Of a DNA stretch of 58,762 bases, positions 57,331-58,762 are shown piece after piece (positions within the stretch are counted from its first letter, which is position 1; each line of letters starts with the position of its first letter). The position numbers and the translations under genes are program-made. The DNA comes from Bacillota bacterium (GTDB lineage Bacteria > Bacillota > DTU025 > JANLFS01): the NCBI GenBank assembly GCA_024655925.1, contig JANLFS010000005.1, forward strand, positions 1 to 58,762. Reading direction: 5' to 3'. A model generated the notes under the pieces. That model ran no database searches. It saw only the letters and a list, made by a program, of their open reading frames with translations, and was not told where the DNA came from.

Positions 57331-57719
57331 TGCCACTTGCCGCCGAAGCACATGCACGGGCCGCGGCCCAGGCTGCGATCGACAAAAAGGCGGAGGACAC
57401 TGTGGCCCTGGACATCTCCGGGGTATCGCTCATGGCAGACTTCTTTGTCCTTTGCAGTGTTCGTACACAGGCACACGCAAGGGCGGTGAGGGAGGAGGTG
57501 ACCCGTGTCCTGGAAACCCAGGGGCTCACCCTCAAGCACCGGGAGGGCTCAGACGATTCCGGGTGGGTGCTGATGGATTGGGGTGACGTAGTGGTGCATA
57601 TCTTCGGTGAAACGGAGCGGCGCTACTACGATCTGGAGCGCCTGTGGGGGGACGCCCCTGTACTCGATCTGGAAGGAACATATCACGAAGCAGGTCAGGG
57701 GGTTGACGCGTCCGACTAG
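57330..57719 (+). CDS. rsfS: ribosome silencing factor RsfS
   Basis: AIDKKAEDTVALDISGVSLMADFFVLCS, W.LMDWGDVVVHIF, RRYYDLERLW. TAATG overlap with yqeK. Confidence 0.9.
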   Translation: MPLAAEAHARAAAQAAIDKKAEDTVALDISGVSLMADFFVLCSVRTQAHARAVREEVTRVLETQGLTLKHREGSDDSGWVLMDWGDVVVHIFGETERRYYDLERLWGDAPVLDLEGTYHEAGQGVDASD

Positions 57720-57731
57720 GGCCGGTATAAT
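57703..57731 (+). promoter_or_regulatory. sigma-A promoter of the T-box/tRNA leader
   Basis: TTGACG - 17 nt - TATAAT, overlapping the rsfS 3' end. Confidence 0.6.
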
Positions 57732-57932
57732 CAAAGCTGACTTGAAAATAGGAAACGGAAACGCTATGAAGAGGAGCAGTAGGGCCTGACGGGCTCCAAG
57801 AGAGCCGGAGGAGGGTGCGATCCGGCAGCCTCGAGGTTCCAAACTCGCCTCGGAGCGGCGCGGGTGAACTTCTCAGTAGCTCGCGACGGGACTCACCGTT
57901 ATACGGTTTCAAAGATGCGCCACGCATTTAGT

Positions 57933-58008
<76 letters not shown>

Positions 58009-58061
58009 TTCTCATGTATGGGTGGCGTGCGTACCAGGGTGGTACCGCGAACAGAGATTCG

Positions 58062-58091
58062 CCCCTGGCAGTTGATCTGCCAGGGGTTTTT
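58062..58091 (+). terminator. T-box expression-platform terminator
   Basis: CCCCTGGCAG-TTGAT-CTGCCAGGGG + TTTTT. Its 5' arm CCCCUGG is shared with the antiterminator helix (CCAGGG...CCCUGG). Confidence 0.85.
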
Positions 58092-58095
58092 CTGG

Positions 58096-58762
58096 GTACG
58101 CCTGGCATGGAGCTATGTCTACAGGGTGAAAGTCCCGAGCGGCGAAGGCGGCAGTAGCCATAGCTCAAGGCAAGGGTGTCCGCCGCGAGGCGGAATCTGA
58201 AGGAAGCCGGCGGCAAACCTCCGGCCCGACGAACAGAAACCCCATACAAGGCCAGGGACAGTTGGATGAGCTTGCCTAGCAAAGCGAAGTCCTTGCCGCC
58301 GAAGGCTGCCCAGGGTAGATGGGGCGGGTAGATGGAGGGAAAGACATAGTCCTTATCCAGGGAGGCCTGCCGGGAACGCTGGAGAATCCGGCAACCCGCG
58401 TCGGAAGGCGCGGCTGAACCGGCAGGAGTCAGCAGAGGCCATACTACCCGGAGGCGGCGCCGCGTCCGGGGAAGGGCCGAACGTGAGACGAGGGTGTGAA
58501 ATGCCGAGCTCGAGAGAGGGACGCCGACAGCCGAATATCCCGCAATGGAGCTGCCTGCGGAAGGATGCGGCGAATCCGCAAGGGGCCGCGGGAGCGCCTA
58601 GTTCCTCTTCGGCGCGAAGCATGGAGCGACCCTGCGGGAGATCTGGGGGAGTGATGGAACTCATCATTGAACCGGCCAATGCGAAGGCAGCCCTCAAGCG
58701 AGTGGAGCGAAACCGGGGGGCAGCTGGTCCTGATGGCATGGCGGCGGAGGTCCTCCGCCGCC
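58096..58762 (+). mobile_element. group IIC intron (domains I-IV, 3' part beyond the window)
   Basis: GUACGCCUGGCAUGG, AGGGUGAAAGUCCCGAGC, GGGUGUCCGCCGCGAGGCGGAAUCUGAAGGAAGC, GGAUGAGCUUGCC, GGGAAAGAC and CAGCAGAGGCCAUACUACCC follow the Oceanobacillus iheyensis IIC intron sequence as I remember it. It begins 5 nt after the terminator U-tract. Confidence 0.8.
58654..58762 (+). CDS. group II intron reverse transcriptase/maturase (N-terminal 36 codons, 3' partial)
   Basis: MELIIEPANAKAALKRVERNRGAAGPDGMAAEVLRR matches the ..A..RV..NKGAAGVDG.. RT-0 motif. ATG behind GGGGGAG. Confidence 0.8.
   Translation, partial: MELIIEPANAKAALKRVERNRGAAGPDGMAAEVLRR

Follow-up and report, generated by a model that had tools for sequence, protein, structure and literature searches.

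A group IIC intron directly behind the T-box terminator of a leuS leader: probable homing under the general terminator rule

Group II introns of the bacterial class C (IIC), e.g., B.h.I1 of Bacillus halodurans, GsI-IIC of Geobacillus stearothermophilus and the Oceanobacillus iheyensis intron, are reportedly found inserted after intrinsic terminators. In the stretch of DNA analysed here (the window, 58,762 nt from a Bacillota bacterium, representing the entire contig C188), the terminator concerned is the expression platform of a T-box riboswitch, and the contig end falls 667 nt into the intron. The earlier note on this DNA took the arrangement for a coupling of a mobile ribozyme to amino-acid starvation signalling. 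The question raised by the locus is whether this pairing represents a regulatory device or a consequence of the way in which such introns find their targets, and which gene lies beyond the intron.

The T-box leader and the 5' boundary of the intron

The features of the window which bear on this question are the following:

57703-57731, plus strand: strong sigma-70-type promoter of the leader (TTGACG-17-TATAAT, 11/12 matches)
57757-58069, plus strand: T-box leader with a Leu specifier (RF00230, 109.4 bits against the Rfam cut-off of 93)
57933-58008, plus strand: tRNA-Ala(GGC) gene, lying within the loop of Stem III
58061-58091, plus strand: T-box terminator hairpin and its U5 (11 pairs, stem end 58086/58087, from the terminator scan)
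58092-58095, plus strand: IBS1 (CUGG), the four bases with which the 5' exon ends, pairing with the EBS1 CUAG
58096-58762, plus strand: 5' 667 nt of the group IIC intron, comprising D1-D3, the D4 leader and the first 36 RT/maturase codons
58276-58279, plus strand: EBS1 (CUAG) in the D1 terminal loop 58274-58281 (from the D1 alignment and the RF02001 structure line)
58654-58762, plus strand: start of the intron-encoded RT/maturase (MELIIEPANAKAALKRVERNRGAAGPDGM...), with the ATG at 58654 and the ORF open at the contig end

Membership of the leader in the T-box class is apparent from its Stem I with the specifier loop, the UGGN bulge, the terminator followed by a U-tract, and the cognate gene leuS downstream, which is encountered directly in the relatives and via contig C172 in the genome of the window. 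The specifier loop reads GAA-CUC-G (Leu), the bulge in the T-box sequence is UGGU, and the specifier context GAACUCGCC is kept in nine related leader-leuS loci.

It is the nested tRNA-Ala, rather than the intron, that makes for the more unusual feature of the locus. This tRNA-Ala(GGC) gene is complete, with the CCA encoded, and occupies a 101-nt insertion in the Stem III loop, the closing pairs around it being approximately UGCGCCAC/GUGGCGUG. The same nested gene is present in the Leu-specifier leaders of nine leader-leuS loci belonging to three families of the same order. Three more T-box leaders of the genome (C195:6195-6589, C111:28619-28975 and C190:16101-16412) are overlong as well, measuring 312-395 nt vs. 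the 219 positions of the model, and may harbor insertions resembling the nested tRNA.

The U5 of the terminator (58087-58091) is followed by CUGG (58092-58095) and by GUACG (58096-58100), the intron starting at 58096, i.e., 9 nt past the terminator stem and 4 nt past the U-run. The aptamer, the antiterminator, the terminator stem and the U-run have all been left intact by the insertion.

Homologues of the intron were retrieved by a DNA search of 21 genomes of the same order (G003, G005, G013, G017 and others). In four related genomes, the alignments of the homologous introns begin at window position 58095/58096; the base preceding the intron start varies among the homologues (G or U) and hence belongs to the exon. 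Seven homologous 5' junctions from four related genomes, each located 5-11 nt 3' of a GC-rich hairpin, display a GUGCG start in all copies but one (L023, GCGCG), the window intron starting with GUACG. The boundary is also marked by a 4-bp EBS1/IBS1 pairing, which consists of C-G, U-A, G-U and G-C pairs in the window and covaries in three variants. The EBS1/IBS1 sequences are CUAG/CUGG in the window, CACA/UGUG in L022 and UACG/CGUG in L023, whereas the copies of G003 combine CUAA with UUAG, AUAG or UCAG. Covariation of this kind across copies sets the 5' splice site between 58095 and 58096. The first base of the 3' exon is U in each of the four copies in which it was seen (4/4), consistent with a one-base IBS3.

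The stem end at 58086, the end of U5 at 58091 and the intron start at 58096, as given in the earlier note, are all borne out by the sequence and the terminator scan, and both the start of the homologue alignments and the EBS1/IBS1 covariation place the 5' boundary where the note had it. The reading of GUACG in place of the usual GUGYG is correct, too. The same 5' end recurs in three independent T-box-adjacent introns of the same type (L042, L048 and L049), and GUACG is, judged by these sequences, a natural variant of the GUGYG consensus. The GUGCG at 58027, which the note had already placed inside the T-box, was rejected as an intron start: it forms part of the 3' strand of Stem III of the T-box, and the homologue alignments do not reach beyond 58095 in the 5' direction.

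A comparison with the Rfam group II models, proposed in the note as a check, returned matches within the window intron to group-II-D1D4-3 (RF02001; 58179-58351, 145.6 bits, E 2e-31) and to group-II-D1D4-1 (RF01998; 58392-58477, 66 bits). D1-D3 extend from 58096 to ~58477 (~382 nt), and the next 175 nt before the ATG constitute the D4 leader. The beginning of the window RT is similar to that of the full-length homologue P0001 (aa 1-35, 63% identity in tblastn).

Class of the intron

The class was assigned from three sources, namely the full-length homologue L022, the C-terminal protein fragment encoded in the genome of the window, and the 3' RNA of the same genome. The homologue (from G005) is ~1.89 kb long, gives D1D4-3, D1D4-1 and domain V matches, and encodes a 415-aa protein, P0001, whose Pfam domains are RVT_1 and GIIM only. 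In PDB, P0001 was aligned end to end with the GsI-IIC RT (6AR1, E 1.4e-163); the other matches were the E. rectale IIC maturase (7UIM, E 3.6e-111), LtrA of class IIA (5G2X, E 2.7e-37) and a IIB maturase/RT (6ME0, E 8.9e-34). The genome's own 157-aa C-terminal fragment, P0002 (contig C172), is 69% identical to P0001 and found only the GsI-IIC RT (2e-41) and the E. rectale IIC protein (3e-18) in PDB; it reaches the C-termini of these IIC proteins, hence there is no endonuclease (En) domain.

Domain V of class C is said to carry a CGC rather than an AGC triad and to form a shortened, 32-nt helix. The domain V of the genome (RF00029, 43.3 bits on C172), the match to which ends exactly at the 3' boundary shared by the intron copies, reads ACCGCCGUAU-ACC-GAAC-GGU-AC-GUACGGUGGU, i.e., it features a CGC triad and a length of 32 nt, with two bulged nucleotides and an upper helix of 3 bp. 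In domain VI, an A located 7 nt before the 3' end is bulged, and domains V and VI together fold with z = -4.8. Further hallmarks of the class include a short EBS1-IBS1 pairing of 3-4 bp, the lack of EBS2-IBS2, and insertion after a terminator-like stem-loop. As to the latter, the window copy is situated 9 nt past the stem, and every copy examined sits after a hairpin.

The ORF begins only after 558 nt of intron sequence, for which reason membership of another class was considered; it was rejected, as D1-D3 occupy no more than the first ~382 nt, the D4 leader accounts for the remainder, and both the protein and domain V are of class C. Overall, the window intron is, on the evidence of its protein and RNA sequences, a bacterial class C group II intron. 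The IIC identity put forward in the earlier note therefore stands on the RT matches to IIC proteins, the CGC domain V, the missing En domain and the hairpin-adjacent insertion.

Like other IIC introns, the window intron combines small D1-D3 (~380 nt), the CGC triad, the 32-nt domain V and a 4-bp EBS1/IBS1 pairing with a position a few nucleotides 3' of a GC hairpin bearing a U-tract, and it is a multicopy element that breaks assemblies. With GsI-IIC, it shares an En-less RT/maturase, its homologue being a close full-length match to the GsI-IIC RT. It differs from the usual IIC introns in its 5' end (GUACG, not GUGCG). Whereas the usual IIC site is an end-of-operon terminator, the hairpin of the window is an attenuator, terminating conditionally within a 5' UTR, so the intron forms part of the transcription unit to which an essential gene belongs.

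The 3' end of the intron and the leuS gene

Domain V was matched three times in the assembly of the same genome, each time at a contig end (C172, C63 and C35). Differences among the three intron 3' ends are confined to 2-3 of 120 positions; the sequences are common through ...CUACCCGAU plus U and diverge thereafter. At the level of sequence, such near-identical 3' ends suggest a young, probably active family. On C172, base 25326 is the last of the intron, and leuS begins 28 nt later, after the Shine-Dalgarno sequence GGGAGGGGGA. This leuS is intact (829 aa, MRDKYFFEDIESRWQ...FPYPSGRVHMGH) and single-copy in the genome, the next tblastn matches being paralogues of 24-26% identity. The predicted ligated exons read ...GGGGUUUUUCUGG joined to UGGCAGAGG....

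The two flanks, i.e., C188 up to 58095 and C172 after the intron, were joined by a script. Eight related loci match the joined flanks in one collinear HSP that spans the junction, and a ninth (L012) matches in two HSPs. In all of these related loci (9/9), the leader, with its CUC specifier and nested tRNA-Ala, runs directly into leuS without an intron. From this synteny, we infer a single recent insertion, the two sides of which are found on C188 and C172. The insertion is, judged by the nine related leader-leuS loci compared, in which the site is empty, recent, and the site is not conserved as an occupied one.

The earlier note had situated the intron between the leader and a regulated gene lying outside the window. 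This gene is identified, by synteny via C172, as leuS, which matches the CUC (Leu) specifier, and the downstream sequence, to which the note had looked for a test, shows domains V/VI, the intron 3' end and an intact leuS 28 nt on. The claim that the mRNA needs splicing to be restored has to be abandoned: the insertion is located in the 5' UTR, and leuS retains in the 3' exon its own Shine-Dalgarno sequence and ATG, placed as in the relatives, so that its frame is intact in the unspliced RNA and splicing is dispensable for it.

About 666 nt of the intron (RT residues ~37-258) are absent from the bin, and both ORF ends are open. The assembled ends include one full intron 5' end, one 5'-truncated copy (on C16) and three 3' ends, and a search for RF02001 elsewhere in the assembly gave nothing beyond the single match in the window. 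A chance 18-mer on C155 was tried as a further 5' end in this genome and rejected, as the sequence does not continue as an intron.

Recurrence of the arrangement and the terminator rule

The recurrence of the arrangement was followed with a pattern composed of the T-box sequence, a gap of 32-62 nt and the intron 5' motif, applied to one genome per species in 185,579 species. The scan returned 16 loci, and 13 of these are genuine, possessing a T-box terminator with a U-run and, 2-5 nt on, the intron (T-box E 1e-10 to 3e-32 with the full model). The hosts are Alteribacillus, Ureibacillus, Alicyclobacillus tolerans, two Ligilactobacillus, Alkalibacterium, Alloiococcus otitis and Lederbergia, along with three Bacillota MAGs and two Anaerolineales MAGs. 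The remaining loci (L035 of Bipolaricaulota, L039 of Dinghuibacter and L044 of Opitutaceae), with neither a terminator nor a continuation as an intron, were discarded as chance matches. The full unit can be seen in Alloiococcus otitis ATCC 51267, where the T-box and its terminator are followed by UUUUUAU, the intron starting with GUGCG, domain V and, 30 nt later, valS.

The window intron belongs to the same lineage (5' GURCGCNYGGCAUG...GGUGNRAGUCC) as those at Alloiococcus otitis valS and in Lederbergia galactosidilytica, Ureibacillus, Alicyclobacillus tolerans and others, and it resembles the other T-box/IIC genomes in that the intron follows 2-5 nt after the U-tract of the T-box terminator. 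Unlike the window, those cases arose independently, the leaders and phyla involved being different; one of them (G134) has a tandem array of ORF-less introns.

Of 401 genomes sampled evenly from the window phylum, 87 together contained ~247 intron-type 5' ends, with zero control matches; four of the ~247, the window included, lie behind a T-box (1.2-1.6%). The genome of the window contains 16 T-box leaders and ~217 terminators as called by a stringent home-made predictor, the crudeness of which makes the expected T-box share (~7%, a few percent of targets) only a rough figure. Enrichment of T-box sites among IIC targets was not found when the 401-genome sample was compared with the terminators of this genome. 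The special coupling of the ribozyme to starvation signalling, as advanced in the earlier note, is thus overstated: the arrangement is found in at least 13 other species, at a rate near that of random terminator homing.

A closely comparable case is on record for another riboswitch. Sherlock et al. (2022, RNA Biol 19:1059; PMC9481103) noted a IIC intron placed directly after a SAM-I riboswitch whose terminator stem is not interrupted; they regarded the case as a potential false positive, explained by terminator homing and not by a ribozyme serving as the expression platform. The window locus is similar in that the terminator stem of the riboswitch is uninterrupted and the IIC intron stands at once 3' of it. 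It is dissimilar in having a T-box/tRNA aptamer, and for this locus it has also been determined which gene follows, that relatives have the site unoccupied, and exactly which bases pair at the splice site. An explicit description of a T-box with a IIC intron was not found in the literature, the remark on SAM-I (PMC9481103) being the only one.

The explanation preferred here, with a probability of roughly 0.88, is that a selfish IIC intron homed on the leuS T-box terminator as a by-product of the general terminator rule; the placement is the general IIC habit, not a dedicated regulatory device. A mobile IIC intron of ~1.9 kb would have retrohomed onto the intrinsic-terminator hairpin constituting the leuS T-box expression platform, this hairpin being the putative DNA stem-loop recognised by the intron. 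With the T-box parts untouched, the sensing of tRNA-Leu should work as before. Upon termination at the T-box, the transcript would end just before the intron, leaving the latter untranscribed; upon read-through, the intron, its RT/maturase ORF and leuS would become parts of one RNA. Splicing would then take ~1.9 kb out of the 5' UTR, and leuS would be translatable from either the spliced or the unspliced form. Expression of the intron would in this way be conditional on uncharged tRNA-Leu.

Co-transcription, splicing and the T-box gating of intron expression are predictions from sequence. The intron is probably able to splice, because its EBS1 matches the local IBS1 and domains V and VI are intact. 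It would be transcribed only by read-through, since it lies 3' of the T-box terminator and the leader promoter is the sole one visible. The promoter scan of the assembled sequence showed the leader promoter as the sole promoter-like site 5' of leuS; the final ~550 nt of the intron and the 3' exon contained none.

Two readings ascribe more to this gating. That it is exploited, with uncharged tRNA-Leu switching on the RT and mobility, and the insert or its splicing reshaping the dose-response or the stability of the leuS mRNA, is quite unlikely; if true, riboswitch-parked IIC introns would form a recurrent, functionally consequential class and not neutral passengers. That the pairing was selected as a regulatory co-option, in which leucine starvation induces the intron RT and mobility and/or splicing tunes the translation of leuS, is distinctly unlikely. 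The T-box promoter is indeed the only visible promoter for the intron, leuS is essential and single-copy, so that the insertion must be compatible with its expression, and other genomes likewise show the arrangement in front of aaRS genes. Still, T-box sites make up only ~1.2-1.6% of the intron-type 5' ends in the 401 genomes, which is not above the T-box share of terminators (~7% by stringent predictions in the window's genome, a rough value), and 0/9 of the related leader-leuS loci examined carry the insertion, which is recent and not conserved. Moreover, the Shine-Dalgarno sequence and ATG belonging to leuS itself make splicing dispensable for the frame, and the SAM-I analogue was judged coincidental by Breaker's group (PMC9481103).

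A dead or mis-joined element, i.e., 667 nt representing a truncated or rearranged remnant, or a 3' partner being C63 or C35 instead of C172, is very improbable: the tally of assembled ends (one full 5' end, the 5'-truncated copy on C16, three 3' ends), the internally deleted copies of related genomes (L029, L031 and L024) and the RT middle missing from the bin could be cited for it, but the relatives have exactly this leader beside exactly this leuS, the specifier is for Leu, C172 has no other leader and just 28 nt from the intron end to the ATG, EBS1 is complementary to the IBS1 of this site, both ORF ends are open, and just 2-3/120 positions differ among the 3' ends.

With terminator homing by a selfish intron as the preferred explanation, the locus provides a clean, precisely mapped case in which IIC introns treat attenuator terminators like other terminators, even when the target is upstream of an essential single-copy aminoacyl-tRNA synthetase gene, and in which a ribozyme of 1.9 kb in the 5' UTR of such a gene appears to be tolerated by the cells. 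The adjacency of a riboswitch and a ribozyme should not be taken for an allosteric ribozyme. For the annotation of MAGs, it is of importance that IIC insertions break assemblies, so that leaders become separated from their genes. The at least 13 independent T-box/IIC junctions could be used as a natural test set for the effect of conditional read-through on intron expression.

Two of the T-box/IIC loci display further peculiarities of the leader. In L042 (Anaerolineales MAG, CBDAFF010000069.1, 156-573), two same-strand tRNA genes are located 140-290 nt upstream of a compact T-box, which is itself followed by a GUACG-type IIC intron. In L079 (G134:C1:2165609-2168676, of the same phylum as the window), a T-box leader of 303 nt (119.5 bits) precedes at least four mini-IIC introns lacking an ORF, arrayed head to tail at a period of 662 nt and each with matches to D1-D4 and domain V. 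The T-box of L079 contains a 75-nt tRNA-like insert matching the tmRNA model (E 2e-15); nested tRNA-like inserts in T-boxes may therefore occur beyond the order of the window.

Incomplete and rearranged intron copies were also encountered. In the genome of the window (G000), contig C16 carries on its minus strand (bases 1-79 and ~120 nt beyond) a 5'-truncated copy of the window intron, starting at the equivalent of window position 58432, 99% identical over 79 nt and placed right after a gene-end GC hairpin; a segment of ~28 nt (GAGCCUCCCCCGCGCCCGCAGAGGCCAU) is duplicated at the junction. This copy looks like a product of abortive retrohoming or of recombination. In L028 (G003:C81:1-1639), the intron lies 7 nt after a hairpin resembling domain VI and the 3' end of another copy (GGGGGCGG...CCGCCCCCUACUCGAU), suggesting a tandem, intron-behind-intron insertion with domain VI as the target hairpin. 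Large internal deletions in L029 and L031 (both from G003) and in L024 (G017) fuse early D1 to the RT coding sequence or to later domains, and the genomes concerned harbor many degenerate intron copies beside intact ones. Finally, the genome of the window contains another maturase (GIIM) remnant, unrelated to the first and interrupted by two in-frame TAG codons (G000:C45:5191-5355), which is probably the decayed ORF of a group II intron of another lineage.
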